A DNA stretch of 40,158 bases from positions 1 to 40,158 of the forward strand of contig JBJONS010000191.1 in assembly GCA_046051725.1 (NCBI GenBank), given 5' to 3'. This document shows positions 10,733 to 40,158 of this stretch, one piece after another; position 1 is the first letter of the stretch, and each line of letters begins with the position of its first letter. This stretch comes from Pseudomonadota bacterium. GTDB lineage: Bacteria > Myxococcota_A > UBA796 > UBA2385. The translations under genes were made by a program, and so were the position numbers. Below the pieces are notes generated by a model. The model was not told the origin of the DNA, made no database searches, and worked only from the letters and a program-made list of their open reading frames with translations.

Positions 10733-10776
10733 CCATCCGCCTGGGCCCGCGCCGCTCCGCCGCGATACGGGCGCCC

Positions 10777-11562
10777 ATGCGCCGCTCCGGTCTGTCCTCC
10801 GCCCCGCTCTCCCCTCCGCCGACCGACCCGCTGGCCGACGGGGACGCCGACCCCGAGGCCCTCGACGACGGCTGGGTCTACGCCCCGCCGCCCGGACCGG
10901 TGGTGGTCGTGCACGCCGACCGCGATCTGGTGGTGATCGACAAGCCGAGCGGGCTGCTGAGCGCGCCCGGCCGCGGGCCCGCCCAGGCCGACAGCGCCCT
11001 GCTGCGCGTGCACGAGCGCTGGCCCACCGCCGAGCCTGTCCACCGGCTCGACCTCGACACCTCGGGCCTGCTGGTCTTCGCCCTCCGCGGCAAGGCGACC
11101 CGGGCGCTGATGGCCCAGCTCCGCGACCGCAGCGTCGACAAGCGCTACCTCGCCTGGGTGGACGGTGCGCCGGCGGCCGAGGCGGGCGAGATTGACCTGC
11201 CGCTGCGGCGCTTGGTCGGCCAGCCCCGCTCGGTGGTCGATCCGAGCGGCCGGCCGAGCTGCACCCGCTGGCAGGTGATCGAGCGCCGGGCCGGCGCGAC
11301 CCTGCTCGCGCTCGAGCCGCAGACGGGCCGCAGCCACCAGCTGCGCCTGCACCTGCGGGCGATCGGGCACCCCATCCTCGGAGACCGCTTCTACGCCCCA
11401 CCCGACGTCATCTCCGCCGCGGGGCGCCTGCTGCTGCACGCCGCAGAGCTCCGCCTGCTCCACCCTTGGTCGGGGGCCCCCCTGGCGCTGCGCGCGCCTC
11501 CGGGTCCCGACTTTACCCCGAAGGTCTCGGCGGACCCCGCGATAAGCTCCGCGCGGGGATGA
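10777..11562 (+). CDS. RluA-family pseudouridine synthase
   Basis: DLVVIDKPSGLLSAPG, the catalytic HRLDLDTSGLLVFAL, then GRSHQLRLHL and LLLHAAELRLLHP are the conserved RluA/RluD family blocks. No S4 domain is present. Start taken at the ATG at 10777 within the longer ORF 10579..11562. Confidence 0.85.
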   Translation: MRRSGLSSAPLSPPPTDPLADGDADPEALDDGWVYAPPPGPVVVVHADRDLVVIDKPSGLLSAPGRGPAQADSALLRVHERWPTAEPVHRLDLDTSGLLVFALRGKATRALMAQLRDRSVDKRYLAWVDGAPAAEAGEIDLPLRRLVGQPRSVVDPSGRPSCTRWQVIERRAGATLLALEPQTGRSHQLRLHLRAIGHPILGDRFYAPPDVISAAGRLLLHAAELRLLHPWSGAPLALRAPPGPDFTPKVSADPAISSARG

Positions 11563-23906: not shown

Positions 23907-26267
23907 ATGTACGACTCCAGCCTCGATGACGACCTGCTCGCGGAATTTCGCGCCGAGAGCCTCGAGCATCTCCGGGCGCTCGAGGAGGGCCTGCTCCGCC
24001 TCGAGGAGGTGGGCGACGACTCCGAAGCGATCGGCGCCGCGTTCCGCGCCGCCCACAGCCTCAAGGGCGGCGCGGGCTTCATGGGACGCCCCGACATCGA
24101 GCGCCTGACCCACGCGGCCGAGGACCTGCTCGATCTCGTGCGCCAAGGCGAGGCCAAGCTCGACCGCCGCTCGACCGGCGCGCTGCTCGCCGCCGCCGAC
24201 CGGCTGCGCGGCCTGCTTGAGGAGGCGCCCGCCGGCCTCGACGACCCGAGCCTCAACCGCGCCGTCGACGCGCTGCGCGCCGAGCTGGTGCGGGCCCAGG
24301 CCCCCGCCGCCGGGGGGCTCGCCGAGGTCTTCACGCCCCCCGCGCCGCCGCCGCGCGGCCCCCGCGCCCCGGATGAGCCCCACACCGCCGACCTCTTCCC
24401 CTGGGCCCGGCCGGCCGAGGCGCCGAGCGGCGGCGCGCCGGCGCCCTCCGAGGACGTCACTGGCCGCATCGCCCCGATCACCCAGCGCCCGGCCCCCGGC
24501 GGCGCGGCGCGGCGGCGCGAGGCCACCCTGTCCTCCCTGCTGAGCCTGTCGATGGGAGACCCCCCGGCGGGCGCCGCGCCCCCGGCGCCTGCCCCGCCCA
24601 AAGCCGCGGCCCCGCCCCCGGCCGAGGCCCCCTCCCCTGTCGCCGGCCCCGCGCCGGCGCAGCCCGAGGGCGGCGCCCGCAGCGCCGACACGACGATCCG
24701 GGTCGACGTCTCGCTGCTCGACGAGCTGCTGAACCTCGTCGGTGAGCTCGTGATCGCCCGCAACCGCATGGGACGGGCGCTGCAGGGCCCGCCGGCCGGG
24801 CAGGTGACCGCGTTTAAGCGCATCGACCAGCTCACCTCCGACTTGCAAGCGCGGGCCACCAAGACCCGCATGCGGCCCATCTCCGCGGCCTGGGCGAGCC
24901 TTCCCCGCACGCTGCGCGATCTGTGCGCAGAGACCGGCAAAGAGGTCCGCCTCGAGCTGTCTGGCCAAGAGACCGAGCTCGACCGCAGCCTGCTCGAGGC
25001 GATCAAGGACCCGCTGCTCCACATCGTCCGCAACGCTGTAGACCACGGCATCGAGAGCCCCGAGGTCCGCCGGGCCGCCGGGAAGGCCCCCGCCGGCCTG
25101 CTGCGGCTGCGGGCCCGCCAGAGCGGAGGCATGGTCCTCATCGAGGCCACCGACGACGGCAAGGGCATGTCTCCCGATGCCATCCGAGACAGCGCGGTCC
25201 GAAAGGGCCTCCTCACCGAGGCCGAGGCGCGGGCCCTCTCGCCCGCCGAAGCCCTCGACCTCATCTTCCGCCCGGGCTTCTCGACCGCCGCCGCGGTGAC
25301 CCGGCTGTCGGGCCGCGGCGTCGGGATGGACGTCGTGCGGACCCAGGTGCGGCAGGTCGGCGGCACCGTCGAGCTGCAGAGCGCGCCGGGCGAGGGCACC
25401 ACGGTGCGCCTGCGGCTGCCGCTGACCCTGGCGATCGTGCCCGCCCTGGTCGTCGAGGCGGGCGGCGCGTCCTTCTGCATCCCCCAAGGCAACCTCGTCG
25501 AGATCGTCGACACGGTGCGGCTCGACCCCAAGCGGGTCTCGGTGGTCGCCGGCGCGCTCCTCCTGCGGCTGCGCGACCGGGTCCTCCCCCTGCTGCGCCT
25601 CGACGAGGCCCTCGGGCTCCGGCCGGCCGGCGGGGCCTCCCCCCTGGCGCTGCAGGGCGCGGTCGTGGTCTGCGAAGCCGAGGGCGCGACCTTCGGCCTC
25701 GTGGTCGACGCGCTCCACGACACCGAAGAGATCGTGGTGAAGCCGCTGTCGCCCGAGCTCAAGGGGCAGGGCTGCTGGGCCGGCGCGACGGTGCGCGGCG
25801 ACGGCAGCCTCACCCTGATCTTGGACCTCGCCGGGCTCGCCCGCGCCGGCCGGGTCATGCAGCCGAGCGCCGTGGCCGTGGCTGCGCCCGCCGCCGAGGT
25901 TGAGAGCCTGCTGCGGGTGCGGGTCGAGGGCGTGGGCTTCGCGCTGCTTCCCCTGGCCTCGGTGCTGCGGTGCGCCGATCTGGTCGACATCGAGCTGATG
26001 GAGCAGGCCGACGAGCGGCTGCTGCTCCACGCGGGGCGGCTCGTGCCCCTGCGCCCGCTCGGCCGCGATGTGCGGGCCGCCGTGATCTGCGCAAGGGACG
26101 GCCGCCTCATCGCGGTGGGGGTCTCGGACGTCGTCGAGGTGGTGCGCGAGCACCTCGAGCTCACGCCGGGCGTGGGCCCCCGCTGGTCGCGCGGGAGCGC
26201 GGTGGTCCGCGCGGCGCCGGCGGCGGTCATCGACCTGGACCTGATCTTCGATGGGGGTGCCGCTTGA
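23907..26267 (+). CDS. cheA: Chemotaxis histidine kinase CheA (Hpt, Pro/Ala-rich linker in place of P2, dimerisation, HATPase, CheW-like domain(s))
   Basis: P1: AFRAAHSLKGGAGFMG. P3: TIRVDVSLLDELLNLVGELVIARN. P4: HIVRNAVDHGIE, DDGKGM, SGRGVGMDVV. P5: VVEAGGASFCIPQGNLVEIV...LTLILDL. A further ~130-aa CheW-like segment follows at the C-terminus. Confidence 0.92.
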   Translation: MYDSSLDDDLLAEFRAESLEHLRALEEGLLRLEEVGDDSEAIGAAFRAAHSLKGGAGFMGRPDIERLTHAAEDLLDLVRQGEAKLDRRSTGALLAAADRLRGLLEEAPAGLDDPSLNRAVDALRAELVRAQAPAAGGLAEVFTPPAPPPRGPRAPDEPHTADLFPWARPAEAPSGGAPAPSEDVTGRIAPITQRPAPGGAARRREATLSSLLSLSMGDPPAGAAPPAPAPPKAAAPPPAEAPSPVAGPAPAQPEGGARSADTTIRVDVSLLDELLNLVGELVIARNRMGRALQGPPAGQVTAFKRIDQLTSDLQARATKTRMRPISAAWASLPRTLRDLCAETGKEVRLELSGQETELDRSLLEAIKDPLLHIVRNAVDHGIESPEVRRAAGKAPAGLLRLRARQSGGMVLIEATDDGKGMSPDAIRDSAVRKGLLTEAEARALSPAEALDLIFRPGFSTAAAVTRLSGRGVGMDVVRTQVRQVGGTVELQSAPGEGTTVRLRLPLTLAIVPALVVEAGGASFCIPQGNLVEIVDTVRLDPKRVSVVAGALLLRLRDRVLPLLRLDEALGLRPAGGASPLALQGAVVVCEAEGATFGLVVDALHDTEEIVVKPLSPELKGQGCWAGATVRGDGSLTLILDLAGLARAGRVMQPSAVAVAAPAAEVESLLRVRVEGVGFALLPLASVLRCADLVDIELMEQADERLLLHAGRLVPLRPLGRDVRAAVICARDGRLIAVGVSDVVEVVREHLELTPGVGPRWSRGSAVVRAAPAAVIDLDLIFDGGAA

Positions 26268-26767
26268 GCGCACCGTCAGTCATCGCCCGGATCGGCGACA
26301 CCACCCTCGCCTTCGCCCTCGCCGAGGTGCGCGAGGTGCTGCTCGACGTCGACGTCCGCCCGGTGCCCCTGGCCCCGCCGGTCATCGCCGGCCTCGTCAA
26401 CCTGCGCGGCGAGGTGCTCACCGCGGTGGACGGGCCGCTGCTGCTCGGCCTGCGCCCGTCGCCGCCGCCCGGCGGCCCGGCGCAGGTGGTGCTGCGCGGC
26501 CCCGGGGCCGGCCGCAGCCTGATCGTCGACGAGGTGCTCGCCGTGCGCCCGATCGACGACGCGCCGACGCAGGCGCCGCCCCCGAACCTGAACCCCGCGC
26601 TGGTCGAGGTCGCCTCCTCGTTGGTGCTGCTCGGCGACCAGCTCACCGTGCGCATCGACGGCCGCGCGCTCATCGCGCGCCTGCTCGCCGCCGTCGCCCC
26701 GCCGGCCACCGCCGCGGGCGGCCCCCATCCCACCACCGCCCAAGACGCCGCTCTGGAGCGCCGATGA
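26264..26767 (+). CDS. cheW: CheW-like coupling protein
   Basis: IARIGDTTLAFALAEVREVLLDVDVRPVPLAPPVIAGLVNLRGEVLTAVD is the CheW core pattern (f.l....yai....V.ei......pvP.ap..v.G..NlRG.v). The only in-frame start candidate I found adjacent to this domain is the TTG at 26264, which overlaps the cheA stop. The upstream part of ORF 25970..26767 overlaps cheA out of frame. Confidence 0.75.
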   Translation: MSAPSVIARIGDTTLAFALAEVREVLLDVDVRPVPLAPPVIAGLVNLRGEVLTAVDGPLLLGLRPSPPPGGPAQVVLRGPGAGRSLIVDEVLAVRPIDDAPTQAPPPNLNPALVEVASSLVLLGDQLTVRIDGRALIARLLAAVAPPATAAGGPHPTTAQDAALERR

Positions 26768-27165
26768 GCCTCAACGCCCTTGTGATCGATGACTCCCGCG
26801 CCACGCGGCTGATGCTCGGCCGCGCCCTGCGCGCGCTGGGCTTCGAGGTCGACGAGCGCGGCGACGCGGCCGAGGCGCTTGAGCTGCTGCAGGGGCAGGC
26901 CGCGGGCGGCGGTGTGCAGGTCGACCTGGCCCTGGTCGACCGCAACATGCCGGGCATGGACGGCCTCAGCTTCGCGCGTGCGGTCCGCGCCGCGCCGGCG
27001 CTGCGCGAGCTCTGCCTGCTGATGGTGAGCAGCGAGACGAACCCGGTCCGCGTGATGGAGGCCATCGAGGCGGGCTTCGACGAGTACCTCATGAAGCCGG
27101 TCTCGGCCGAGGCGCTGCGCGAGCGCCTGGTGATGCTCGGCTTCGGCGACGGGAGCGCGGCATGA
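26764..27165 (+). CDS. cheY: CheY-like single-domain response regulator
   Basis: ATGA overlap with cheW. LVIDDSRATR...LALVDRNMPGMDG...LMVSSE...YLMKP carries all the receiver active-site residues. Only the last 133 codons of ORF 26251..27165 are used. Confidence 0.88.
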   Translation: MSLNALVIDDSRATRLMLGRALRALGFEVDERGDAAEALELLQGQAAGGGVQVDLALVDRNMPGMDGLSFARAVRAAPALRELCLLMVSSETNPVRVMEAIEAGFDEYLMKPVSAEALRERLVMLGFGDGSAA

Positions 27166-28007
27166 TCGCGCCTCCCGGCCGCCCCCCACCAGACCCGAGC
27201 CAGGCGGTCGCGTCGCTGCTCAAGCGCCGCACGGGTGTCCAGATCGCGCCCGGTCGGGAAGACCTCATCCAGTCGCGCCTCGCCCCGCTGCTGCGCCAAG
27301 AGGGCCTCACCGATCTGGGGCAGCTCGTGGCCGCCCTGGAGCGCGCCGAGGCGGCCGAGCGCGCGCGCGGGCCGACCTTGATCGACCAGGTCGTGGACCT
27401 GCTGACCACCCATGAGACGAGCTTCTTCCGCGACCCGCCGGTCTTTCAGTGGCTGCGGCAGCGGGCGATCCCCCGCATGCTCGCCGGCAGAGACCCGCGC
27501 CAGCCGCTGCGGGTCTGGTCGGCGGCCTGCAGCACCGGTCAGGAGGCGCTGAGCGTGGCGATGTCGGTCCTCGAGGACCACCCTGGACAAGCGCTTGAGG
27601 TGGTCGGCACGGACATCAGCGCGCTGACCGTCGCCGAAGCCACCGCAGCGACATACGCGGTGCTGGCGGTCAACCGGGGGCTGCCCGCCCGCGCGCTGCT
27701 GCGCTGGTTTGAGCGCGACGGCGCGGGCTGGCGCGCCACCCCACCCCTCCGGGCGGTCACCCGCTTCGCCGTGGGCAACTTGGTCACCGATCGCCCGCCC
27801 GGGTCAGGCTTCGACATCGTCCTGCTCCGCAACGTGCTCATCTACTTTGACGACGCGGACCGTCAGCGCGCCCTCGACGCGGTCGCGACGGCGCTCCGCC
27901 CTGGCGGCCTGCTGATCCTGGGGACCGCCGAGGGGCTGATGCCGATCAATGGCGCCGTCCTGCGCGCCGAGCGAGAAGACATGATCGGCTACCGCGTGCG
28001 CGTGTGA
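27162..28007 (+). CDS. cheR: Chemotaxis protein methyltransferase CheR
   Basis: ATGA overlap with cheY. ETSFFRDPPVF, LRVWSAACSTGQEALSVAM (SAM-binding), FDIVLLRNVLIYFD and GGLLILG. Confidence 0.88.
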   Translation: MIAPPGRPPPDPSQAVASLLKRRTGVQIAPGREDLIQSRLAPLLRQEGLTDLGQLVAALERAEAAERARGPTLIDQVVDLLTTHETSFFRDPPVFQWLRQRAIPRMLAGRDPRQPLRVWSAACSTGQEALSVAMSVLEDHPGQALEVVGTDISALTVAEATAATYAVLAVNRGLPARALLRWFERDGAGWRATPPLRAVTRFAVGNLVTDRPPGSGFDIVLLRNVLIYFDDADRQRALDAVATALRPGGLLILGTAEGLMPINGAVLRAEREDMIGYRVRV

Positions 28008-28483
28008 CCGGGGAGGAGACGGACATGATCATCACGCTCAACCGAGCGCTCAGCGGCGCGCTGGACGCCTTCCTGCTCAGCCTCGGCGTCGAGCTCCCGC
28101 TCGGCGTCGCCGGCGCGGCGCGCGGGGGCCCGACCCTGCCCGGCACCTGGGTGCGCCTGCCCTTCGCCCACCACGAGCTGCACCGCGACGGCTCGACCGC
28201 GCTGGCGGTCGGGCTCAGCCCCAGCGCGACCGTCCGCCTGACCGAGGCGATGACCGGGATCCGCGCCGCGCAGCAAGACGCCGAGCTGCAGGGCGACACC
28301 GTGTCCGAGCTCGCCAACATCCTCGCCGGCAACGTCCAGCCGCTGGTCCCCGGGACGATCGGGCTGCGCCTGCCGGCGAAGATCGACGCAGATCAGGCAG
28401 CCAACGGCGCGGGCCTGCGGTTCGACTGCGGGCGCGACGGGGTGATCGAGGTGCGCGTGCTGGGGGACCTCGCCGCCGCATGA
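28004..28483 (+). CDS. CheX/CheC-like protein (putative CheY-P phosphatase)
   Basis: GTGA overlap with cheR and ATGA overlap with cheB. About 159 aa. GDTVSELANILAGNV resembles the CheC/CheX/FliY D/S-x3-E-x2-N motif region. Assignment rests on size, context and this one motif. Confidence 0.55.
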   Translation: MTGEETDMIITLNRALSGALDAFLLSLGVELPLGVAGAARGGPTLPGTWVRLPFAHHELHRDGSTALAVGLSPSATVRLTEAMTGIRAAQQDAELQGDTVSELANILAGNVQPLVPGTIGLRLPAKIDADQAANGAGLRFDCGRDGVIEVRVLGDLAAA

Positions 28484-29538
28484 CGCTGCGTGTCTTCGTC
28501 ATCGACGACTCGTCGGCCGTGCGGACCGTGCTCGGCTTGGCGATCAACCGGGTGCCCGACGTGCAGTGCGTCGGCTCCGCGGCCAGCGGCGAGGAGGCCC
28601 TCGCGGCGCTGTCTCGCCTCGTGGTCGACCTGGTCATCGTCGATCAGGCGCTGCCTGGCGCTGACGGCGTGACCACGCTCGGCGAGCTGCGCCGCCGGAT
28701 CCCCGCGCTGCAGGCGGTGATGCTCAGCGCGATGCCCCCCGACCGCCTGCGGGCGCGCCTCGAAGAGGCCCGCCTCGCCGATGTCGACGTGCTGCCCAAG
28801 CCCGACGCCCGGGCCGAGTTCGGCGCGTGGTTCAGCGCCGCGCTCGCGCCCCGGCTCAGCCGCGCGGCGCCGCGTCCGGGCCCGCCTGGCGCGCCTCCCC
28901 GCGCCGACCGGCGGGGCGCGCACGTCGACAGCCCGGTCGAGGTGGTGCTGATCGCCGCCTCGACCGGTGGCCCCGACGCGATCCGCCGCGTCCTCGAGCT
29001 GCTGCCCCCCTCGATCGGGGTCCCGGTCCTGGTGGTCCAGCACATGCCGGCGACCTTCACCGGGGTCTTCGCGGCGAGTCTCGACGGGCGGCTGCCCTGG
29101 ACCGTGGTCGAGGCCCGGCCCGGTGACGAGCCGGCGGCCGGCCGTGTCTACATCGCGCCGGGCGGCGCGCACCTCGAGGTGCAGCGGGCGCCGATGGGGC
29201 CGCGGCTCAGCCTCACCGACACCGCCCCCCTCCACGGTTGTCGACCGGCGGCGGACCGCCTGTTCCTCACCGCGGCCGAGGCCTATGGCCCGCTCGCAGT
29301 CGCGGCGGTGCTCACCGGCATGGGTCGAGACGGCGCCGACGGCGCGCTGGCCCTGCGCGCCCGGGGCGTGGTGGTCCTCGCGCAGGACCGCGAGTCCTCG
29401 ACCGTGTGGGGCATGCCCGGCGCCGTCGTGGGGGCGGGCGCGGCGTCCGCCGTGCTCCCGCTCGACGAGATCGGCCCGGCGCTCGAGCGCCTGGTCGTGG
29501 ACCGCCGGCGGGGGCGCGAGCGCACCCCCAGCGCCTAG
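28480..29538 (+). CDS. cheB: Protein-glutamate methylesterase/deamidase CheB (REC + methylesterase)
   Basis: VFVIDDSSAVR...LVIVDQALPGADG (REC). VVLIAASTGGPDAIRRVL (catalytic Ser), VVQHMPATFT (His), LTGMGRDGADG (Asp), and VWGMPGAV. Confidence 0.9.
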   Translation: MTLRVFVIDDSSAVRTVLGLAINRVPDVQCVGSAASGEEALAALSRLVVDLVIVDQALPGADGVTTLGELRRRIPALQAVMLSAMPPDRLRARLEEARLADVDVLPKPDARAEFGAWFSAALAPRLSRAAPRPGPPGAPPRADRRGAHVDSPVEVVLIAASTGGPDAIRRVLELLPPSIGVPVLVVQHMPATFTGVFAASLDGRLPWTVVEARPGDEPAAGRVYIAPGGAHLEVQRAPMGPRLSLTDTAPLHGCRPAADRLFLTAAEAYGPLAVAAVLTGMGRDGADGALALRARGVVVLAQDRESSTVWGMPGAVVGAGAASAVLPLDEIGPALERLVVDRRRGRERTPSA

Positions 29539-31337: not shown

Positions 31338-32567
31338 TCAGCCGAGCACGACCTTGACCCCGCGGACCAGCCCGCCCAGCGCGGTGGTCACCTCGGCGGT
31401 GGTCGGCGCCGCGACGATGGCCCAGCCCTCGCCCTCGTAGCTGGTCGAGGCGGGCTGCCCGACGACCGGCAGCTTGCGGTCGACCACGTAGCGGCCGACC
31501 TCGTGCTGGGCGCGCTCGAGGCCGTCGACCGCGACGACCACCCCGCCCCGGCCCTGCCCGCGGAAGAAGGCGGTGCCGGCGGCGCGCTGGCGGGTGGCCG
31601 GCACGTCCCAGGTCCCGAGCACCATCAGGCGGCACCAGGCCTCGATCATGTCGCGGCCAAAAGCCAGGCTCATCATCGGCATGATGTTGACGCCCGGCGG
31701 CCGGGCCCCGACCTCGCCGATGACGAAGCTGCCGTCGGGCCGCTCGAACCACTCCATGTGCGAGATGCCGGTCACCAAGCCGAGCGCGCGCAGCGCCGCG
31801 TGGTTGGTCTCGCGGAAGGTGGTCCAGGGCGCGTCGATCTCGCGCGGCAAGGTCACCGTGTACTGCATCCAGGGGTGCTCGAGCACCGCGAGCGGGGTCG
31901 GGTGGTAGCGGGTGCCCGACCACCAGACCGGCTCGCCGTCGATCATCACGGTCTCAAAGGTGCGCTCGACGCCGGTGATGAACTCTTCGGCCTGCACCGG
32001 GCGGGCGGCGCTGGGCTGCAGCTGCTCGAGCGCGCTCTGCAGCGCGGCGCGGTCGGCGACGCGGAAGGTCGCCTTGGCGCCCACCCCCGCCACCGGCTTG
32101 AGGATGATCGGGAAGCCGACCTCGCCGACGAAGTCGACGCCATCCTGAACCGACTCGAGGCGCCGGTGGCGGGCCACCGGCAGACCGGCCGCGCGTAACA
32201 CCTCTTTCATTCGGTCTTTATCGCGGAAGTTCAGCGCTTGGTCGACCTTCATGCCCGGCACGCCGGTCGCGCTGCGGGCCTCGCCCAGCGGCACCTGCAG
32301 CTGCTCCAGCACGCCAAGCAGGCGATCCACCCGCCCCCAGGCCCGCTGAAAGGCGCTGACGCCCTCGGCCAGCGTGGCGCCGTCCATGGCCGGGCGCACG
32401 ACGTAGTGGCCAGCCACGAGGGCGGCGAGCGCTGGATCGACGTGCTGCAGCTTGCCCTCGGGCTCACAGCTCAGCAGCCCGAGGCGGACGCCCGGGATGG
32501 CCGCCAGCGCGCGGGCGTAGCGCAGGGTGTTTTCGAGGAAGAACGGGGCGACGAGCAGGACGTGCAT
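31338..32567 (-). CDS. Stand-alone ATP-grasp ligase (409 aa), substrate unknown
   Basis: Pre-ATP-grasp N-terminus MHVLLVAPFF. ATP-binding FPIILKPVAGVGAKATFRV. Hinge QAEEFITGVE. Mg/ATP site SHMEWFERPDGSFVIGEVGARPPG. GGAG lies 5 nt before the ATG. The upstream 433 codons of ORF 31338..33866 are antisense shadow of iadA. Confidence 0.8.
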   Translation of the reverse strand: MHVLLVAPFFLENTLRYARALAAIPGVRLGLLSCEPEGKLQHVDPALAALVAGHYVVRPAMDGATLAEGVSAFQRAWGRVDRLLGVLEQLQVPLGEARSATGVPGMKVDQALNFRDKDRMKEVLRAAGLPVARHRRLESVQDGVDFVGEVGFPIILKPVAGVGAKATFRVADRAALQSALEQLQPSAARPVQAEEFITGVERTFETVMIDGEPVWWSGTRYHPTPLAVLEHPWMQYTVTLPREIDAPWTTFRETNHAALRALGLVTGISHMEWFERPDGSFVIGEVGARPPGVNIMPMMSLAFGRDMIEAWCRLMVLGTWDVPATRQRAAGTAFFRGQGRGGVVVAVDGLERAQHEVGRYVVDRKLPVVGQPASTSYEGEGWAIVAAPTTAEVTTALGGLVRGVKVVLG

Positions 32568-32678
32568 GGGGGCTCCAACGGCGAGGGCCGGCGGCGCGCT
32601 AATCCGGCCGGCCAGCGGCCACCCCACGCCGCGGCCACCGTTCACCACACTGTCCCCTCCCCGCCCGCGGAGCCCTGC

Positions 32679-33851
32679 ATGTCGGCGCCCCCCACCCTCC
32701 ACCTGCTGCGCGGCGCGCGCGTGTTCGCGCCCGAGGACCGCGGCCGCCAAGACCTGCTCTTCGGCGGGGGCCAGCTGCTCGCCGCCGGCCCGGGGCTCGC
32801 CGCCCCGCCGCCCGGCTGGCCGGTCGAAGAGCACGACTGCAGCGATCTGGTCGCGATCCCCGGCCTCATCGACCTGCACACCCACCTCAGCGGCGGCGGC
32901 GGCGAGGGGGGCGCCCACACCCGCGTGCCGCCAGTGCAGCTCACCGACCTGAGCCTCGCCGGCGTGACCACCGCGGTCGGCCTGCTCGGCACCGACACCA
33001 CCACCCGCAGCCTCGAAGAGCTGCTGGCGACCGCCCGGGGCCTCAGCCACTTCGGCCTCACCGCCCTCTGCTACACCGGCGGCTACCGCGTGCCGCCCCG
33101 CTCGTTGCTGGCGACGGTGCGCGAAGACATCGCGCTCATCGACCGCTTCATCGCGGTCGGCGAGATCGCCATCTCGGACCACCGCAGCGGCCAGCCCACT
33201 TTTGACGAGCTGGTGCGCATCGCCGCCGACGCCCACGTGGCCGGGCTGATGACCGGCAAGGCCGGCATCCTGCACCTGCACCTCGGTGACGGCCCCCGGG
33301 GGCTCAGCCTCGTGCGCCGCGCGCTGGACGAGACCGAGCTGCCGGCGCGCGTCTTCCACCCCACCCACGTCAACCGCAACCGGCGGCTGTGGGCCGAGGC
33401 GGTCGAGCTGGGCGCGCGGGGCCTCTCGGTCGACGTGACCTGTTTTCCGCCCGCGCCGGGCGAGCCCACCGCCGCCGACGACGTGCGGGCCTGGCTCGCC
33501 GCGGGCAACCCGCTCGGGCGCCTGACGCTCAGCAGCGACGGCGGCGGCTGCTTGCCTGAGTTTGACGCAGAGGGCCGCCTGCTGCGGATGGAGGTCGGCA
33601 AAAGCAGCGCGCTGCTCGACACCCTGCGCGAGCTGGTCAGCGGCGGGCTGCCGCTGGACCAGGCCCTTCGCCCGCTGACCGCCACGCCGGCGGCCCTGCT
33701 GCGCCTCGGGCAAAAAGGCGCGCTGGCCCCGGGCGCCGACGCCGACATCGTCCTGTTGGACGCTGATCTGCGCCTGCACTCCACCATCGCCTCGGGCCGC
33801 TGGCTGGTGCGCGCCGGCCGCCCGCTGGTGCGCGGCCCCTTTGAGGCCTGA
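32679..33851 (+). CDS. iadA: Isoaspartyl (beta-aspartyl) dipeptidase
   Basis: AIPGLIDLHTHLSGGGGEGGAHTRVPPV matches the IadA signature (G.ID.HVHL.GGGGE.G...R.PE). Also FIAVGEIAISDHRS, GILHLHLGDG, HPTHVNRN and ADIVLLD. 390 aa, as for E. coli IadA. Confidence 0.85.
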   Translation: MSAPPTLHLLRGARVFAPEDRGRQDLLFGGGQLLAAGPGLAAPPPGWPVEEHDCSDLVAIPGLIDLHTHLSGGGGEGGAHTRVPPVQLTDLSLAGVTTAVGLLGTDTTTRSLEELLATARGLSHFGLTALCYTGGYRVPPRSLLATVREDIALIDRFIAVGEIAISDHRSGQPTFDELVRIAADAHVAGLMTGKAGILHLHLGDGPRGLSLVRRALDETELPARVFHPTHVNRNRRLWAEAVELGARGLSVDVTCFPPAPGEPTAADDVRAWLAAGNPLGRLTLSSDGGGCLPEFDAEGRLLRMEVGKSSALLDTLRELVSGGLPLDQALRPLTATPAALLRLGQKGALAPGADADIVLLDADLRLHSTIASGRWLVRAGRPLVRGPFEA

Positions 33852-33979
33852 GCGCGGCGCCGCCACGGAGAGGCCCGGGGGGCGTTGAAGCCATGCGCCC
33901 CCCCTTGCTACGGTCCGCGCCCCTCCGACGGACCTCGCCCGCGCGTCCGCGCCTCCGCCCCTCCCCTGGACCTCCGCCC

Positions 33980-34807
33980 ATGCCCTCCCCCGAGCAGACC
34001 CCCGGTTCCCGCGGCTTCATCATCCCGATCGGCGGGGCTGAGGACAAGATCAGCGACCGGCTGATCCTCCGCCGGTTCATCAACCTGTGCGGCGGCGCCG
34101 ACGCGCGCGTCGCCGTCATCCCCACCGCGTCTGAGCTCGACAGCACCGGCGACCGCTACCGCGAGATCTTCGGCAACCTGGGCGTGCGCCACGTCGATGT
34201 GCTCGACATCCGCGAGCGGGCCGACGCCGAGAAGGCCGAGCACGTGGACGCGCTCAACCGGGCCACCGGCATCTTCATGACCGGCGGCAACCAGCTGCGC
34301 CTCTCGACCATCCTCGGCGGCACCGCGGTCGCCCAGACCATGCGCCGGGTGAACGCGCGCGGCACCCACGTCGCCGGGACCAGCGCCGGCGCCGCCTTTG
34401 TCAGCGAGCACATGATCGCTTTTGGGCGCGAGGGCGCCACGCCGATCGCCGGCCAGGCCACGCTCTGCGCCGGCCTCGGCCTGACCAACCGGGTGATCGT
34501 CGACCAGCACTTCCGGGAGCGCGACCGCCTCGGCCGGCTGCTGACCAGCCTCGCCTACAACCCCTTCGCCATCGGGCTCGGCCTCGATGAAGACACCGCG
34601 GCCTTCATCGGCCCCGACAACGTCATCGAGGTGGCCGGCGCCGGGGCGATCACGATCGCCGACGTCAGCGATCTGGCCTACAGCGGCATGGCCAGCGTGC
34701 GCGAGGGCCGGCCGGTGCAGCTCATCGGGGTCAAGCTGCACATCCTCAGCGACGGGGGCGTGTTCCGGCTCGACAGCCGCGAGGCCAAGCCCGGCCTGCG
34801 CGACTGA
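33980..34807 (+). CDS. cphB: Cyanophycinase (peptidase S51), intracellular CphB-type
   Basis: GFIIPIGGAEDK, VAVIPTAS, GIFMTGGNQLRL, the catalytic-Ser motif VAGTSAGAAFVSEHMI, VIVDQHFRERDRLGRL and GLGLDEDTA. No signal peptide with either start (ATG 33980 preferred; ORF track 33893). Confidence 0.88.
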   Translation: MPSPEQTPGSRGFIIPIGGAEDKISDRLILRRFINLCGGADARVAVIPTASELDSTGDRYREIFGNLGVRHVDVLDIRERADAEKAEHVDALNRATGIFMTGGNQLRLSTILGGTAVAQTMRRVNARGTHVAGTSAGAAFVSEHMIAFGREGATPIAGQATLCAGLGLTNRVIVDQHFRERDRLGRLLTSLAYNPFAIGLGLDEDTAAFIGPDNVIEVAGAGAITIADVSDLAYSGMASVREGRPVQLIGVKLHILSDGGVFRLDSREAKPGLRD

Positions 34808-34978
34808 GGCGCCGGCCCGCCCGCCCGCCGCGCCGGGCACAGCGCGGGCGTGATCTTCGAGAACAACCTTCCAGAGGTCATCTTCGCAGACCCCCTTCGC
34901 GCGGCGCGCGGGGCTGGTGCAGGCTGCGGTCCCACGGTCGGGCCGCGCCCGCCTCCCCTCGCACCGCCCGGAGCACCG

Positions 34979-37774
34979 ATGCGCATCCTCGAGCAGCGCA
35001 CCTACGTCGGCCCCAACCTCTACGCGACCTTCCCGGTCATCCGGCTGACGCTGGACCTGGGGCCGCTCGAAGACCGGCCCTCGGCCACCATCCCCGGCTT
35101 CGTCGAGCAGCTCAGCGCGCTGATCCCCAGCCTCGACCAGCACGGCTGCTCCTATGGCGAGCCCGGCGGCTTCCTGCGCCGCCTCGGCGAAGACGGCGGC
35201 ACCTGGATGGGCCACGTGCTCGAGCACGTCGCCATCGAGATCCAGAACCTCTGCGGCAGCCGGGTCACCTTTGGCAAGACCCGCGGCAACGGCGAGAAGG
35301 GCCAGTACCACGTCGTGTTCGAGTACGACGAGGCCTGGGTCGGCGAGAAGGCGGGCGAGCTCGCCCTGCGCCTGCTGCACCACCTCGTGCCGGCCGAGCT
35401 GCGTCCGGGCGTGCCCGACGAAGAGGGCTTCGCGTTTCAGTCCGAGCTCGAGGACCTCATCCGCGGCGCCCAGCGCCGGGCGCTCGGGCCCTCGACCAGC
35501 AGCCTCGTGCGCGCGGCGCAGGCCCGCGACATCCCCTGGCTGCGGCTCAACCAGTACAGCCTCGTGCAGTTCGGGCACGGCAAATTCCAGAAGCGCATCC
35601 AGGCGACCGTCACCAGCGAGACCCGGCACATCGCCGTCGACATCGCCAGCGACAAAGAGCTGACCAACAAGATCCTCGGCGACGTGGGCCTGCCGGTGCC
35701 CCGCCAAGACCAGACCACCTCGGCCGAGCAGGCGGTGCGGGCCGCGCGCCGCCTCGGCTACCCCGTCGTGGTCAAGCCGCTCGACGCCAACCACGGCCGC
35801 GGCGTGTCGATCGGCATCGACAGCGACGACGGCGTGCGCACCGCCTGGGCCCAGGCCCGCGAGCACAGCCGCACCGTGCTGGTCGAGACCTTCATCAAGG
35901 GCTTCGACCACCGCATGCTGGTCGTCAACGGCGAGCTGGTCGCGGTCGCCAAGCGGGTGCCCGGCCACGTGGTCGGCGACGGCGTGCACACCATCGGGCA
36001 GCTGGTCGAGATCACCAACCAGGACCCCCGCCGGGGCATCGGCCACGAGAAGGTCCTCACCCGGCTCGAGCTCGACCACCAGGCCCAACGGCTCATCGAG
36101 GTCGCCGGCCACACGGTCGACACCGTGCTGCCGGCCGGCGAGACCTTCTTCTTGCGCAGCACCGGCAACCTGTCGACCGGCGGCACCGCGGTCGACGTGA
36201 CCGACATCTGCCACCCCGACAACCGCGAGATGGCCGTGCGGGCCACGGCGACCATCGGCCTCGACGTCTGCGGCGTCGACTTCCTCTCGCCCGACATCTC
36301 TCGATCCTACAAAGAGGTCGGGGGCGGCATCTGCGAGGTCAACGCCGCGCCGGGCTTCCGCATGCACGTCGCGCCGTCCGAGGGCCAGCCGCGCGACGTC
36401 GCCGGCAAGGTCATGGACATGCTCTTCCCGCCGGGCACGCCGAGCCGCATCCCGATCGCGGCGATCACCGGCACCAACGGCAAGACCACGACCACCCGGA
36501 TGCTCGCCCACATCCACAAGCTGGCCGGCGCCATCGTCGGTATGACCACCACCGACGGGGTCTACATCGACGGGCAGCGCACGGTCGAGGGCGACATGAC
36601 CGGTCCGCAGGCCTCGCGGATGGTGCTGCGCGACCCGACGGTCTCGGTCGCGGTGCTCGAGACGGCCCGCGGCGGCCTGCTGCGGGCGGGCATGGGCTAC
36701 CGGATCCCCGACGTGTCCTGCTGCCTCAACGTGTCGGCCGACCACCTCGGGCTGGGCGGCATCCACACCGTCGAGCAGCTCGCCGAGGTCAAGCGCATCC
36801 CCATCGAGGTCGCCCGCGACACGGTGGTGCTCAACGCCGACGACCCGCACTGCGTGCGGATGGCCTCGCACACCCGCGCCAAGCACATCTGCTACGCGAC
36901 GATGAACCCGAGCAACAGCCTCGTGCGCGAGCACATCCGCGCCGGCGGGCGGGCGGTCGCGCTCGAGGGCGGCGTCAACGGGCAGATGATCACGCTCTAC
37001 GACAAGGGGGCCCACATGCCCCTGCTGTGGACCCACCTCATCCCCGCGACCATCGAGGGCAAGGCCCTGCACAACGTGCAGAACGCCATGTTCGCCGCGG
37101 CGATGGCCTACGCGATGGGGGTGCGGCTCGACGACATCCGCCACGGCCTGCGCACCTTCGACACGAGCTTCTTCCAGACGCCCGGCCGGATGAACGTCTA
37201 CGATCAGCTCGGCTACCGCGTCATCCTCGACTACGGCCACAACCCGGCGGCCATCGAGGCCATGTGCACGCTGACCGACCGCATGGTCGAGGGCGGGGTG
37301 CTCGGCAAGGCCGGCAAGCGGGTGGTGGTCTTGGCCGCCCCCGGCGACCGGCGCGACGAGGACATCCTCGGCATCGCCCGGCGCGCGGCGGCGAGTTTTG
37401 ACCACTTCATCTGCCGGCGCGACGACAACCCGCGCGGGCGGGGCGCCGACGAGGTGCCGCGGCTGCTCGCCCGCGGCCTCGCCGAGGCGGGGGTCAGCGC
37501 GGACCAGATCCAGATCGTCGACACCGAAGAGCCGGCGGTCGACCTCGCCCTCAGCATCTGCCAGCCCGGCGACCTGCTGCTGGTCTTCGCCGACAAGGTC
37601 ACCCGCACCTGGAAGCAGATCATCTACCACGGGGGCCGCAAACCCGAGGCCGAAGCGGACGCGGCGCCGGTCGTGCAGCCCGCGGTGGCCGCCCCGACCC
37701 CCTCGGTGGACGGCCTGGTCTTCGTGCGCGATGAGCGCGGCGTCATCGCCATCACCCAAGAGGAGGCGGACTGA
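34979..37774 (+). CDS. cphA: Cyanophycin synthetase (N + ATP-grasp G + Mur-ligase-like M domains), 931 aa
   Basis: N-domain: MRILEQRTYVGPNLYATFPVIRLTLDLG...GTWMGHVLEHVAIEIQN. G-domain: DKELTNKILGDVGLPVP, GYPVVVKPLDANHGRGVSI, VLVETFIKGFDHRMLVVNGELVAV and ICEVNAAPGFRMH. M-domain: ITGTNGKTTTTRM, LETARGG, NVSADHLG and DYGHNPAA. GGAG lies 5 nt before the ATG at 34979. Confidence 0.93.
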   Translation: MRILEQRTYVGPNLYATFPVIRLTLDLGPLEDRPSATIPGFVEQLSALIPSLDQHGCSYGEPGGFLRRLGEDGGTWMGHVLEHVAIEIQNLCGSRVTFGKTRGNGEKGQYHVVFEYDEAWVGEKAGELALRLLHHLVPAELRPGVPDEEGFAFQSELEDLIRGAQRRALGPSTSSLVRAAQARDIPWLRLNQYSLVQFGHGKFQKRIQATVTSETRHIAVDIASDKELTNKILGDVGLPVPRQDQTTSAEQAVRAARRLGYPVVVKPLDANHGRGVSIGIDSDDGVRTAWAQAREHSRTVLVETFIKGFDHRMLVVNGELVAVAKRVPGHVVGDGVHTIGQLVEITNQDPRRGIGHEKVLTRLELDHQAQRLIEVAGHTVDTVLPAGETFFLRSTGNLSTGGTAVDVTDICHPDNREMAVRATATIGLDVCGVDFLSPDISRSYKEVGGGICEVNAAPGFRMHVAPSEGQPRDVAGKVMDMLFPPGTPSRIPIAAITGTNGKTTTTRMLAHIHKLAGAIVGMTTTDGVYIDGQRTVEGDMTGPQASRMVLRDPTVSVAVLETARGGLLRAGMGYRIPDVSCCLNVSADHLGLGGIHTVEQLAEVKRIPIEVARDTVVLNADDPHCVRMASHTRAKHICYATMNPSNSLVREHIRAGGRAVALEGGVNGQMITLYDKGAHMPLLWTHLIPATIEGKALHNVQNAMFAAAMAYAMGVRLDDIRHGLRTFDTSFFQTPGRMNVYDQLGYRVILDYGHNPAAIEAMCTLTDRMVEGGVLGKAGKRVVVLAAPGDRRDEDILGIARRAAASFDHFICRRDDNPRGRGADEVPRLLARGLAEAGVSADQIQIVDTEEPAVDLALSICQPGDLLLVFADKVTRTWKQIIYHGGRKPEAEADAAPVVQPAVAAPTPSVDGLVFVRDERGVIAITQEEAD

Positions 37775-39426
37775 TGCTGAGGGCCGAGGCCCGCCGGGTC
37801 ACCGGCCTGCACCCGCTGCTGCCCGCGCCTGGCGCGGCGGTGGAGCTGCTGCTGGAGGCCGACGAGCCGGCCGCGGCCCTCGACGCCGCCCTGCCCGCGA
37901 TCGCCGCGCGGGTGGCCGCGCTCTGGTCGGCGCACGGCCTCGGTGACGGCGCCCTGCACGTGCGCCGCCACGCCGCCGGCGCGAGCCTCGGCGTCTGCGC
38001 CCCGATCGACCAGCTCAGCGGCGCGGTCGACGCGCTGGAAGAGGCCATCGCGCCCGGCCTGAGCGCGCCGGGCGCCCTCGCCGACTTGCTCGAGGCCGAG
38101 CGCGCCCCGGCCCTGCGCGCGCTGTGGGCCGCCACCGCCCACCTCGACCGCTTCGTCGACGAGGACGGCTTCACGCTCGGGCTCGGCGCCGGCGCGGTCA
38201 CCTGGCCGCTGGGCGCCCTGCCCGACCCGTCGGCGCTGCCCGAGACCCGCAGCGTCCCCACCGCCTACGTCACGGGCACCAACGGCAAAACCACGACCAC
38301 ACGCATGGTCTCGGCCATCGCCACCGCGGCGGGCCTGCGGGCCGGGCACACGAGCAGCGACGGGGTGGTGGTCTGCGGCGAGTGGCGGGCGCGGGGCGAC
38401 TGGACCGGCCCCGGCGCCGCGCGCACCCTCCTGCGTGCTCCCGACCTCGATCTCGGCGTGCTCGAGACGGCCCGCGGCGGCCTGATGCGGCGGGGCCTCG
38501 TGCTCGACCGGGCCTGGGCCAGCGCCGTGACCAACATCAGCGACGACCACCTCGGCGAGTGGGGCCTCGACGACCTCGACGCGATGGCCTGGGCCAAGCT
38601 CACCGTGGCCCGCGCCACCCGCCCCGGCGGGGCCTTGGTCGTGCACGGCGACGACCCGACCCTGGCCCGCGCCCTGCCGGGGCTGCTGCGCGACCGCCCT
38701 GACCTGCGGGTGCTGCGCTTCGCCGACGGGCCCGAGCGGCCGGGCCTCGACGCCTGGGCCACCGGCGGCGCGCTCTGGTGGCGCGGCGCCGACGGCGGCC
38801 CTGCCCCGCTGCTGTCCGAGGCCGCCCTGCCCGCCTGCGTGGGCGGCGCGGTGCGCACGATGGTCGAGAACGCCCTCTGCGCGGCCCTGCTCGCGCGCGA
38901 GCTCGGCCTCGCCGACGCCGCGGTGCGCGCCGGCCTCGCCGGCTTTCGCCTCGACACCGCGATGTCCCGCGGGCGCCTCAACCGCTTCCAGCTCGAGGGC
39001 GGGGCCGAGGCGGTGCTCGACTTCGCCCACAACCCCGCCGGGATCCGCGGCCTCGCCGGGCTCGCCGCCCGCCGCCGCGGCCGCCTGCTCGTGCTGGTCG
39101 GCCAGGCCGGCGACCGCACCGACGCGCTCATCGCCGCCTACGCCGCCGAGATCGCCGCGCTGCGGCCGGATCGCGTGCTGCTCAAAGAGCTGCCCCACTA
39201 CCGCCGGGGCCGGGCCGAGGGCGAGGTCCGCGCCCTGCTGCGCCGCCAGCTCGAGGCCGACGGGGTGCCGACCGCGGCGATCGGCGACGAGCCCGACGAG
39301 CTGCTGGCCGCCCGGCGCCTGCTCGAAGAGGCGCAGGACGGCGACCTGGTGCTGCTGCTCATCCACGAAGAGCCCGACGCGGCCATGGATCTGATCGACG
39401 ACATGGGGGGAGCGGCCCTGCCGTAG
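37774..39426 (+). CDS. CphA-related Mur-ligase-type protein lacking the ATP-grasp domain (550 aa)
   Basis: The start shares its A with the cphA stop (TGATG). Residues ~170-550 repeat the CphA M-domain motifs: YVTGTNGKTTTTRM, LETARGGLMRRG, NISDDHLGEWG, DFAHNPAGIRGL and GQAGDRTD. The first ~165 residues are divergent and Ala/Leu-rich. No ATP-grasp motifs are present. Confidence 0.8.
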   Translation: MLRAEARRVTGLHPLLPAPGAAVELLLEADEPAAALDAALPAIAARVAALWSAHGLGDGALHVRRHAAGASLGVCAPIDQLSGAVDALEEAIAPGLSAPGALADLLEAERAPALRALWAATAHLDRFVDEDGFTLGLGAGAVTWPLGALPDPSALPETRSVPTAYVTGTNGKTTTTRMVSAIATAAGLRAGHTSSDGVVVCGEWRARGDWTGPGAARTLLRAPDLDLGVLETARGGLMRRGLVLDRAWASAVTNISDDHLGEWGLDDLDAMAWAKLTVARATRPGGALVVHGDDPTLARALPGLLRDRPDLRVLRFADGPERPGLDAWATGGALWWRGADGGPAPLLSEAALPACVGGAVRTMVENALCAALLARELGLADAAVRAGLAGFRLDTAMSRGRLNRFQLEGGAEAVLDFAHNPAGIRGLAGLAARRRGRLLVLVGQAGDRTDALIAAYAAEIAALRPDRVLLKELPHYRRGRAEGEVRALLRRQLEADGVPTAAIGDEPDELLAARRLLEEAQDGDLVLLLIHEEPDAAMDLIDDMGGAALP

Positions 39427-39480: not shown

Positions 39481-40158
39481 ATGGTCCCCTCCCGCGCGCT
39501 GCCGCTGCTCCTCCCCCTGCTCGTGCTGGTCGCCTGCGATGGCGACGGCGAGAAAGATGACACCGGCGGCGGCTCGTTCAGCGACGGCGCAGACGGGACC
39601 GACGGCGCGGACGGGACCGATGGCGCCGATGGCGCGGACGGCGCGGACGGCGCGACCGACTGCGTCGACAACGGCACCTTCCAGCTCAGCGGCATCGTCC
39701 GCTTTGACGGCAGCCCCGCAGAGGGCGCGACCGTCTACCTCTGGGCTGACGACGTGTTTGAGCCCGTGACCGCCACCACCGACAGCGAGGGCGCCTACTT
39801 CGTCGAGGCGCCGGCCGGCGACTGGTACCTCGAGGTCAGCACCGCAGACGGCTGCTACTCGTCCACCGACCCGATCAGCGCCGCCGTCTGCGACGACCTG
39901 GTCGTCGACTTCAGCGTCTCGCCCGACGACTGCGTGACCGCCGACAAACCGAACCTCTACCTCTACCCCAAGCGCGACCTGCCGATGCAGGTCGAGGTGC
40001 TGCTCGGCCGCAAGCAGCGGGTGGTGGCCAGCGATCCGCAGCTTCCGCCGCAGGGCTGGCGCGGCGTCGCCCACCCCGACGGCACCTGGACCGCCCAGGG
40101 CGCCAAGGAGCGCAGCCCCTTCCTCTTCTACGAGGTGAGCCTCGCGCCCGAGCAGCTC
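39481..40158 (+). CDS. Lipoprotein (5' partial, runs off the window) with a (D-G-A/T)8 repeat and a carboxypeptidase-regulatory-like domain
   Basis: Not in the ORF track because it has no stop in the window. I translated it by hand: MVPSRALPLLLPLLVLVACDGDGEKDD...DGADGTDGADGTDGADGADGADGA...FQLSGIVRFDGSPAEGATVYLW...DSEGAYFVEAPAGDWYLEV. Lipobox LVLVAC. GC3-rich codons. The opposite-strand ORF 39457..40074 is a shadow. Confidence 0.65.
   Translation, partial: MVPSRALPLLLPLLVLVACDGDGEKDDTGGGSFSDGADGTDGADGTDGADGADGADGATDCVDNGTFQLSGIVRFDGSPAEGATVYLWADDVFEPVTATTDSEGAYFVEAPAGDWYLEVSTADGCYSSTDPISAAVCDDLVVDFSVSPDDCVTADKPNLYLYPKRDLPMQVEVLLGRKQRVVASDPQLPPQGWRGVAHPDGTWTAQGAKERSPFLFYEVSLAPEQL
39583..39654 (+). 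repeat. Eight tandem 9-nt units (GAC/T GGN RCN) encoding D-G-A/T
   Basis: gacggcgca gacgggacc gacggcgcg gacgggacc gatggcgcc gatggcgcg gacggcgcg gacggcgcg read directly. Confidence 0.8.

Follow-up and report, generated by a model that had tools for sequence, protein, structure and literature searches.

Besides the synthetase CphA1 (or CphA2), cyanophycin metabolism is thought to need both a cyanophycinase and an isoaspartyl dipeptidase. The present analysis concerns a further gene, which directly follows cphA1 in a stretch of bacterial DNA of 40,158 nucleotides (contig JBJONS010000191.1, G+C ~75%; hereafter, the window) and encodes a 550-amino-acid (aa) CphA paralogue without the ATP-grasp core of the G domain (hereafter, the G-less protein). 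The full-length CphA1 has an N, a G and an M domain, and CphA2 has N and G together with a truncated M that is inactive (PMC10273328). 'Two copies of cphA in series' have been described in Betaproteobacteria and activated-sludge taxa (PMC10687191). In the bioinformatics, structure and metagenome papers on cyanophycin that were covered, only cphA1, cyanophycinase, iadA/iaaA or such 'two copies of cphA' are considered, and no description of the N-M architecture of the G-less protein was found, a prior mention in subscription papers (the 2021 CphA1 structure and the 2007 survey by Fueser and Steinbuechel) being possible.

A sequence-only reading of the window had placed the start of the 550-aa gene on the last base of the cphA stop codon (TGATG), and direct reading of the sequence bore this out. 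The junction reads ...GAGGAGGCGGACTGATGCTG..., with an overlap of 1 nt, and because the upstream open reading frame (ORF) ends at 37774, the ATG of the G-less gene shares its A with the TGA stop of cphA1. The two genes and the parts of the G-less protein are as follows.

34979..37774, + strand: cphA1, full cyanophycin synthetase 1 with N, G and M domains (931 aa; TIGR02068 1125 bits, cutoff 850)
37760..37766, + strand: Shine-Dalgarno-like GAGGAGG in the last cphA1 codons, 7-13 nt before the ATG of the G-less gene
37774..39426, + strand: G-less CphA paralogue, N-(G stub)-M, 550 aa, ATG start (ORF, domain and structure evidence)
37774..38100, + strand: predicted divergent CphA-type N domain, residues 1-109 (AlphaFold2 model, Foldseek and hhalign)
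38101..38223, + strand: predicted G stub (helix and beta-hairpin), residues ~110-150, homologous to CphA1 ~170-209 (the opening ~40 residues of its G domain)
38245..38952, + strand: Mcore (Mur-ligase central, ATP-binding domain), residues 158-393 (Pfam Mur_ligase_M; Foldseek), with the P-loop TGTNGKT (38272-38292), T193, E231, D258-H259 (38545-38550), K275 and N366
38953..39408, + strand: Mlid (Mur-ligase C-terminal domain), residues 394-545 (Pfam Mur_ligase_C), with R401, D416, H419, GDR(T)D 446-450 (39109-39123) and ELPHYRRGR 472-480 (39187-39213), both of the latter motifs being unlike those of CphA1

The last Glu-Glu codons of cphA1 are also the ribosome-binding site of the G-less gene.

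The M domain of the G-less protein was compared with CphA1 and with other ligases. By BLASTP, the two window proteins were 33% identical (target 161-529 against CphA 492-871, E = 1e-32), and the NCBIfam model for cyanophycin synthetase, TIGR02068, matched target residues 158-543 with its positions 476-860 (257 bits, E = 3e-76). The curated cutoffs for CphA1 were not reached (TIGR02068, 257 vs 850 bits; NF010623, 221 vs 877 bits). The best NCBIfam model of a Mur ligase, MurE, gave 66 bits against a cutoff of 476, the scores for FolC (38 vs 163 bits) and MurT (26 vs 800 bits) were far under their cutoffs, and no CapB match was present among the listed NCBIfam results. The gathering scores of the Mur superfamily were passed (PF08245, 48 bits against 24; PF02875, 41.5 bits against 28.4). 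In a sequence search of the PDB, CphA1 chains gave 152-189 bits and every other Mur-type ligase 38 bits or less. A full-length AlphaFold2 model was built on 31 homologues (predicted local distance difference test score (pLDDT) 95.6; predicted template modelling score 0.94), and in Foldseek its residues ~158-545 matched the M domain of TeCphA1 (7wae_A) with E = 2e-33 and a root-mean-square deviation of 2.3 Å over 401 columns, the next-best family being MurE (1e-21). All five pairs of motifs by which the sequence-only reading had recognised a repeated CphA M domain occur verbatim in the two translations, and its description of a CphA paralogue without an ATP-grasp domain agreed with Pfam, NCBIfam, the PDB search and Foldseek.

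MurE and MurF resemble the G-less protein in the fold of their central and C-terminal domains and in the P-loop, and they have in common with it the Mg-binding Glu, a conserved Lys (K275) and the motifs DxxHN and GDR, but the G-less protein lacks their UDP-MurNAc-binding N domain and lies in a cyanophycin context rather than in a dcw cell-wall cluster. MurT (of MurT/GatD) and CapB/PgsB are Mur-fold precedents that activate a peptide or polymer carboxylate (for amidation or poly-gamma-glutamate synthesis); the similarity to MurT, however, is marginal at 26 bits, and neither a GatD-like glutaminase nor a CapA/C partner was found in the conserved neighbourhood of the G-less genes. Public annotation names the relatives 'UDP-N-acetylmuramyl tripeptide synthase', 'Mur ligase family protein', 'cyanophycin synthetase' (automatic) or 'hypothetical'.

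No ATP-grasp domain was detected in the G-less protein by Pfam or NCBIfam, and the alignment to CphA1 skips from ~residue 209 to ~486. In the N-terminal ~150 residues no Pfam family was matched (PF18921 included), and a profile of the N region found nothing among PDB sequences. An AlphaFold2 model was built of the N region only (residues 1-158, pLDDT 95.5); in a Foldseek search of 350,542 PDB chains its top 10 matches were all CphA1 or CphA2 (probability 0.57-0.99, template modelling (TM) score 0.40-0.52), with a CphA2 chain as the top match and no non-CphA match above a probability of 0.25. By hhalign, family positions 2-152 were aligned with CphA1 2-209 when CphA1 1-520 was used as the template (E = 1.9e-5, probability 77.5%), and the match was weak against CphA1 1-165 alone (probability 8%, E = 0.004). 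The stub by itself gave E = 1.3e-4 and a score of 27.8, compared with 16.3 for the best of 20 column-shuffled controls; the aligned patterns were nPaL..aA..glP.f.DdD..TvGlG in the family and GPST..Iv.aA..R.IPw.rL..SLvQlG.G at the start of the CphA1 G domain. The usable evidence on the N domain came from a template extended into the G domain, from the N-only model and from the actinobacterial-type subfamily (see below) as a bridge, the N domain of which was aligned with that of CphA1 by hhalign at a probability of 96.5% (E = 8e-10).

Since the N-only Foldseek search, the hhalign comparison of the N region and that of the stub agree, the architecture is read as N-(G stub)-M, i.e., CphA1 minus residues ~210-485, and on sequence comparison and the predicted structure its initial ~150 residues represent a CphA N domain that has diverged strongly, with a putative remnant of the start of the G domain. 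The sequence-only reading had called the first ~165 residues divergent, which holds; beyond this, the first ~110 of them are read as a remote CphA N domain. Its impressions that the G-domain core looks excised and that one segment mirrors the CphA sequence just before the ATP-grasp core were both upheld by these comparisons. Within the family, the N-region positions R7, R8, T10, G11, G20, D79, D129, G136 and G138 are conserved. The HxxEH metallopeptidase motif of the CphA1 N domain (PMC9262961) is missing, and helix 78-92, the counterpart of the HxxEH helix, carries the invariant D79 and the pattern LE[W/E]A.

Compared with the CphA1 structures (SuCphA1, 7LG5/7LGQ; TeCphA1, 7WAE; TmCphA1, 7LGN), the G-less protein has in common the Mcore and Mlid fold with the ATP, Mg and catalytic residues (31-33% identity over ~385 residues), a predicted N-terminal CphA N fold, a putative remnant of the start of the G domain and a cyanophycinase in the same operon, but it differs in the lack of the ATP-grasp core and of Cx19HxxEH and in altered pocket motifs. 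Like CphA2 (8FXH/8FXI, 7TA5), it is a CphA1-derived paralogue minus one catalytic activity, with an N domain that lacks the peptidase motif (PMC10273328, PMC9262961). The two are mirror images: CphA2 keeps G, whereas the G-less protein keeps a complete and, by its residues, apparently active M, and the opposite arrangement of CphA2 had been correctly given in the sequence-only reading (PMC10273328). CphA2 is moreover cyanobacterial and polymerises beta-Asp-Arg, in contrast to the G-less family, which occurs near cphA1 in non-cyanobacterial phyla.

A neighbour-joining (distance-based), unrooted tree of 127 M domains with 100 bootstrap replicates contained three groups: a proteobacterial type of G-less proteins (43 sequences including the target, support 95), an actinobacterial type (11 sequences, support 99), and the M domains of all CphA1s (73 sequences, support 95, with Cyanobacteria, Bacteroidota, Firmicutes, Proteobacteria and Actinomycetota represented), among which the CphA1s partnered with a G-less protein group together. 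Because the G-less M domain falls outside the group of all 73 sampled CphA1 M domains, it did not arise by recent duplication of its neighbour. That a piece of the N-terminal ATP-grasp subdomain is retained points to an N-G-M ancestor rather than to a pre-fusion N-M protein, which suggests that the G-less protein arose from a CphA1-like protein of three domains that lost its ATP-grasp core (~210-485).

A protein search with the G-less sequence returned thousands of matches, of which the best 120 were nearly all 517-582 aa long and mostly covered at least 95% of the query; the closest named relatives were from metagenome-assembled genomes (MAGs) that carry the label Deltaproteobacteria or Myxococcota. 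A profile of the N region, searched against 1.84 billion cluster representatives (50% identity), matched 809 at E <= 1e-3 and 578 at E <= 1e-10, and among the best 150 matches listed the full-length members had 510-606 aa and none was of CphA1 size. Many of the matches to this profile (P0121-P0255) had 144-400 aa and are probably gene fragments at contig ends. The family has no dedicated Pfam or NCBIfam model. It is defined here by a length of ~510-610 aa, an N-like domain with RR.TG and D79, a direct junction to TGTNGKT, GDRxD, Y/H-L-RGR and a gene adjoining cphA1, and the protein of the window shows all of these characters.

In a distribution scan of one genome per species, G-less homologues were found in Planctomycetaceae, Steroidobacteraceae, Rubrivivax, Lysobacterales, Luteimonas lutimaris JCM 16916, Nannocystis, Plesiocystis pacifica SIR-1, Acidobacteriota and Thermoanaerobaculia, and the proteobacterial type as a whole spans Proteobacteria, Myxococcota, Planctomycetota and Acidobacteriota. 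The second subfamily, the actinobacterial type, was found in Kribbella, Terrabacter, Nocardioides, other Actinomycetota, Thermomicrobiales and Sphaerobacteraceae (Actinomycetota and Chloroflexota; loci L007, L010, L013, L014, L022, L027, L036, L037, L042, L054 and L069). Its deletion boundary differs in that CphA1 position ~178 is joined to ~488 and the G stub is absent. The Terrabacter versions (L027, L036) carry a fused C-terminal TPR_5 domain.

Linkage to cphA1 was examined in loci that had been picked by similarity to the query, so that the figures are not a census of co-occurrence. A full cphA1 lay within the fetched locus for 19 of the 21 G-less genes with usable flanks, in six phyla. 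The order S51 peptidase-cphA1-G-less gene, with a 1-nt overlap or gaps of no more than 15 nt, was found in the window, in L081, L082, L083 and the P0054 contig, and in L002, L005, L006, L008 and L035; in L001 the gap between cphA1 and the G-less gene was 2 kb. Cyanophycinase and iadA usually stood beside the pair as well. In Acidobacteriota, Chloroflexota and several Actinomycetota the two genes are close to each other on opposite strands, and in Kribbella unrelated genes separate them, at a distance of 4-5 kb. The described tandem cphA copies likewise comprise a paralogue beside a full cphA, but they keep the G domain, have a weak or partial M match and do not have the 550-aa N-M architecture. 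Such copies were seen directly upstream of a full cphA in three betaproteobacterial loci (L015, 4594-5304; L016, 3148-3870; L018, 1342-2061), where the second cphA-like gene has a G domain and a weak, partial M match (~84 bits) and may be a CphA2-like reduction outside cyanobacteria. In a Thermoanaerobaculia MAG (L023, 11747-13516, - strand), the cphA1 beside the G-less gene looks broken: the G-domain matches are split in two and the M-domain match stops after its first 248 residues, which may reflect a frameshift, an assembly error or decay.

Conservation of the active site was assessed in 31 homologues with 40-71% identity to the G-less protein. TGTNGKT, D196, E231, N254, H259, K275, N366, R401, D416, H419, G446-D447-R448 and R480 were invariant, and T193 and D258 were at least 90% conserved. 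K275 is taken here to be the equivalent of the carbamylated Lys of MurD/E/F. In each of the two G-less subfamilies the ATP, Mg and catalytic positions were at least 88% conserved. The G-less residues match the ATP and Mg ligands K499/T500, T522, E558, N497, R731 and H748 of TeCphA1 (PMC9427784), and the positions of D585/H586, the double mutation of which inactivates the M domain of SuCphA1, are kept as well (PMC9262961). Judged by these residues, the M-type ATP/Mg site of the G-less protein is intact, as the sequence-only reading had also supposed. Neither a loss of catalytic residues nor a place in a Mur, FolC or CapB clade, either of which would have refuted that reading, was seen.

Four motifs around this conserved catalytic core are altered in both G-less subfamilies. 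GDRRD(E)D of CphA1 (second R 91%, last D 94%) is replaced by GDRxD; [D84%]-x-x-L-R-G-R is replaced by a one-residue insertion followed by Y/H-L-R-G-R; GD[C/M][T/S]GP.S is replaced by GD[W/Y/F]..GP.[G/A]; and ARGG.L.R[E/A/S]G has R/K at its variable position. The net change in the pocket is a loss of acidic and a gain of basic residues. Binding of the incoming amino acid by Mur ligases falls to their C-terminal domain, and D-x-x-L-RGR of CphA1 is presumably the equivalent of the DNPR specificity motif of MurE; the CphA1 of the window reads DDNPRGR at this segment. At another position, that of the adenine-stacking Phe of TeCphA1 (F692), partnered CphA1s and most G-less proteins have His ('HNV.NA') and the target has Thr (region ~697-705 in the window CphA1 and 358-366 in the target).

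The partner enzyme in the window appears complete. Its true start is the ATG at 34979 (931 aa) and not the GTG at 34850; Pfam found Cyanophycin_syn N, ATP-grasp, Mur_ligase_M and Mur_ligase_C domains; the N domain carries the C..HxxEH motif; and the protein aligned end to end with TmCphA1 (7lgn) at 1032 bits. A deficiency of the partner CphA1 in some function was considered and rejected, as no loss was seen in its N, G and M motifs.

With architecture, homology, catalytic-site conservation, family and gene linkage taken as established, the G-less protein is tentatively proposed to be a separately acting ligase that would work on cyanophycin or its precursors with an altered acceptor and/or incoming substrate, a statement which as a whole is given slightly less than an even chance. 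A narrower statement, according to which the protein is an active ligase in cyanophycin metabolism, is regarded as probable from sequence, predicted structure and linkage. In the proposed scheme, the protein would be made together with CphA1 from one mRNA of the iadA-cyanophycinase-cphA1 operon, by way of the 1-nt overlap. CphA1 uses its N domain and its Mcore to hold the end of the cyanophycin chain (PMC9427784); both are retained in the G-less protein, together with Mlid, and would form the corresponding cleft. Mcore would bind ATP and Mg and phosphorylate the carboxylate of the bound substrate, and an amine held by Mlid would attack the acyl-phosphate to give an (iso)peptide bond. As no G core is present, the Asp backbone could not be extended, so that the protein would have to act on chains or precursors made by CphA1. 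The same pocket changes in both subfamilies, together with the kept catalytic residues, suggest that acceptor and/or incoming substrate would differ from '(beta-Asp-Arg)n-Asp plus Arg'. The polymer would thus be modified, completed or diversified, rather than the reaction of the CphA1 M domain being duplicated. Of the functions listed in the sequence-only reading, decoration with another residue and a role as partner or primer-handling subunit are compatible with the data, and the altered pocket motifs favour changed specificity.

Several points weigh against this proposal. In the partner CphA1, the sites of the N (C..HxxEH), G and M domains all appear intact, so that there is no missing function for a second enzyme to supply, and TmCphA1 and AbCphA1, which belong to the same clade, make cyanophycin alone in vitro (PMC9262961), which implies that the paralogue is not needed for basic synthesis. 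In some Actinomycetota the G-less gene is 4-9 kb from cphA1, with unrelated genes between. The likeness of the N domain to that of CphA is weak at the sequence level and the structural match of the N-only model is moderate (TM 0.4-0.5, E = 8e-3 to 0.26), and in the proteobacterial type the homology of this domain rests on such moderate structural scores and a weak profile match. Activity is predicted from conserved residues for every member of the family, and the altered motifs would be specificity determinants by analogy with the C-terminal domain of Mur ligases (MurE DNPR).

A more specific form of the proposal, possible although on the whole unlikely, is that the G-less ligase attaches a unit which CphA1 is unable to add, for instance a non-Arg residue on the beta-carboxylate of Asp or a further residue on the free alpha-carboxylate of the Arg side chains. 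If this is true, a cyanophycin-type polymer of distinct and so far undescribed chemistry would be produced by a two-enzyme system of CphA1 and an N-M ligase in many Proteobacteria, Myxococcota, Acidobacteriota and Actinomycetota.

The G-less protein could instead repeat the reaction of the CphA1 M domain as a helper, adding Arg to the beta-carboxylate of the C-terminal Asp on chains released from CphA1 and so speeding synthesis or rescuing (beta-Asp-Arg)n-Asp chains that have stalled. The RGR motif is present along with every catalytic residue, the parts for holding a chain end are retained, and co-translation with CphA1 fits joint action; however, both subfamilies have consistently lost two residues of GDRRD(E)D, its second Arg and its last Asp, as well as the conserved Asp before RGR, which is hard to reconcile with an unchanged Arg pocket, and a simple booster would not be expected to form a deeply separate group beside CphA1s with intact M domains. 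This explanation is considered unlikely.

A role in priming is decidedly doubtful. The M reaction would then take place on free Asp or a very short acceptor and yield beta-Asp-Arg, which the G domain of CphA1 would extend to (beta-Asp-Arg)-Asp, with no lag. The minimal primer is indeed (beta-Asp-Arg)-Asp and primer supply limits CphA1 (PMC9262961); a small, more acidic acceptor would go well with the additional basic residues (R7 and R8 in the N domain; R/K in ARGG.L.RRG), and the loss of the primer-cutting HxxEH site from the N domain means that the protein is not a second cutter. Yet the proteobacterial-type partner CphA1s all keep C..HxxEH and should be primer-independent, the motifs for the incoming substrate are changed too, which priming does not require, and a maker of beta-Asp-Arg in one operon with IadA, which cleaves it, would run a futile cycle unless regulated.

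That the protein is a non-catalytic structural or regulatory subunit, binding CphA1 or cyanophycin and affecting chain length, granule formation or oligomeric state, is improbable. Translational coupling is typical of subunits of a complex, CphA2 is a precedent for CphA-family domains that are kept as inactive scaffolds (PMC10273328), and the TPR domain on the Terrabacter versions is a protein-interaction domain, but residues that serve only ATP binding, Mg binding and catalysis are invariant or nearly so among the homologues and highly conserved in both subfamilies, which argues for catalysis, and related CphA1s work alone. An ordinary Mur-family ligase (MurC-F, MurT, FolC or CapB type) that merely stands beside cphA1, as the generic public names and the two Mur-ligase domains seen by Pfam would have it, and a decaying cphA1 duplicate are both effectively excluded and most improbable, the former by Mur, FolC and MurT scores of no more than 66 bits, under their cutoffs, against 257 for cyanophycin synthetase, by the absence of a UDP-binding Mur N-terminal domain and an N-terminal fold that matches only CphA N domains, and by the linkage to cphA1 kept across phyla, and the latter by the large family with its conserved full length and active site.

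The remaining genes of the cyanophycin cluster in the window precede cphA1.

~32679..33851, + strand: iadA, with which the cyanophycin cluster opens (isoaspartyl / beta-aspartyl dipeptidase); start approximate
33893..34807, + strand: cyanophycinase (peptidase S51, CphB/CphE type; TIGR02069 250 bits, cutoff 126.6; Pfam Peptidase_S51)

The call of iadA is based on TIGR01975 (383.5 bits, cutoff 331; residues 155-536 of the ORF 32238-33851) and Pfam Amidohydro_1, and its equivalent in the near-identical contig L081 was called as 390 aa. The start of the cyanophycinase is uncertain; it has 275 aa as called in L081. An 842-aa minus-strand ORF (31338-33866) proved to be two things: its 3' part (~31338-32567) is a real 409-aa ATP-grasp gene, and its 5' part is an antisense shadow of iadA, which gave spurious 'conserved' tblastn matches elsewhere. 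The best NCBIfam matches of the ATP-grasp gene (31338-32567, - strand) were PRK02186- and PRK07206-type ATP-grasp proteins. Behind the G-less ligase, the next gene (~39481-40158, + strand) runs past the end of the window; in L081 it occupies 9892-10929 and encodes 345 aa with a weak CarboxypepD_reg-like domain. Homologues of the ATP-grasp gene and of the 345-aa gene were found in L081 and in none of 82 other loci, where the sole matches of the ATP-grasp gene were weak ones to the G domain of CphA1 itself. The sequence-only reading had offered a split second synthetase composed of the G-less protein and this ATP-grasp protein; as the latter has no counterpart beside any other family member apart from the near-identical L081, that reading was rejected.

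Upstream of the cyanophycin cluster lie chemotaxis genes (a CheA-CheW fusion, a response-regulator protein, CheR, a 159-aa ORF and CheB), YchF, and a pair of a histidine kinase and a sigma-54 activator; these chemotaxis, YchF and kinase regions span 23907-29538 (+ strand), 29626-~30720 (- strand) and 7367-10163 (+ strand).

The C-terminal tail of the window CphA1 ends ...RDERGVIAITQEEAD. CphA1s of its clade have a low-complexity C-terminal extension of ~55-70 aa that ends in [LIV][IV]RDERGV[RI].A..E..D, a motif observed in the window (37600-37774) and in L001, L002, L004, L005, L006, L008, L024, L035 and L056. The extension is also present in TmCphA1 (7lgn) and is absent from cyanobacterial, Bacteroidota and betaproteobacterial CphA1s. 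The idea that this 'RDERGV' tail is a docking peptide specific to partnered enzymes was not sustained, since TmCphA1 has the tail too.

The G-less protein points to a fourth conserved enzyme of cyanophycin metabolism, encoded in the same operon in at least six phyla and annotated only as a generic Mur ligase. It represents a natural 'domain-deletion experiment' on an enzyme with three active sites and the mirror image of CphA2. Should it change the composition of the polymer, nature would offer a way to modified cyanophycins, which are wanted for materials and for the production of dipeptides; should its role be to supply primers or to rescue chains that have stalled, it would explain how some bacteria start or speed synthesis. 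This G-less half-copy of CphA1 may be an unrecognised player in the making of the nitrogen-storage polymer cyanophycin.

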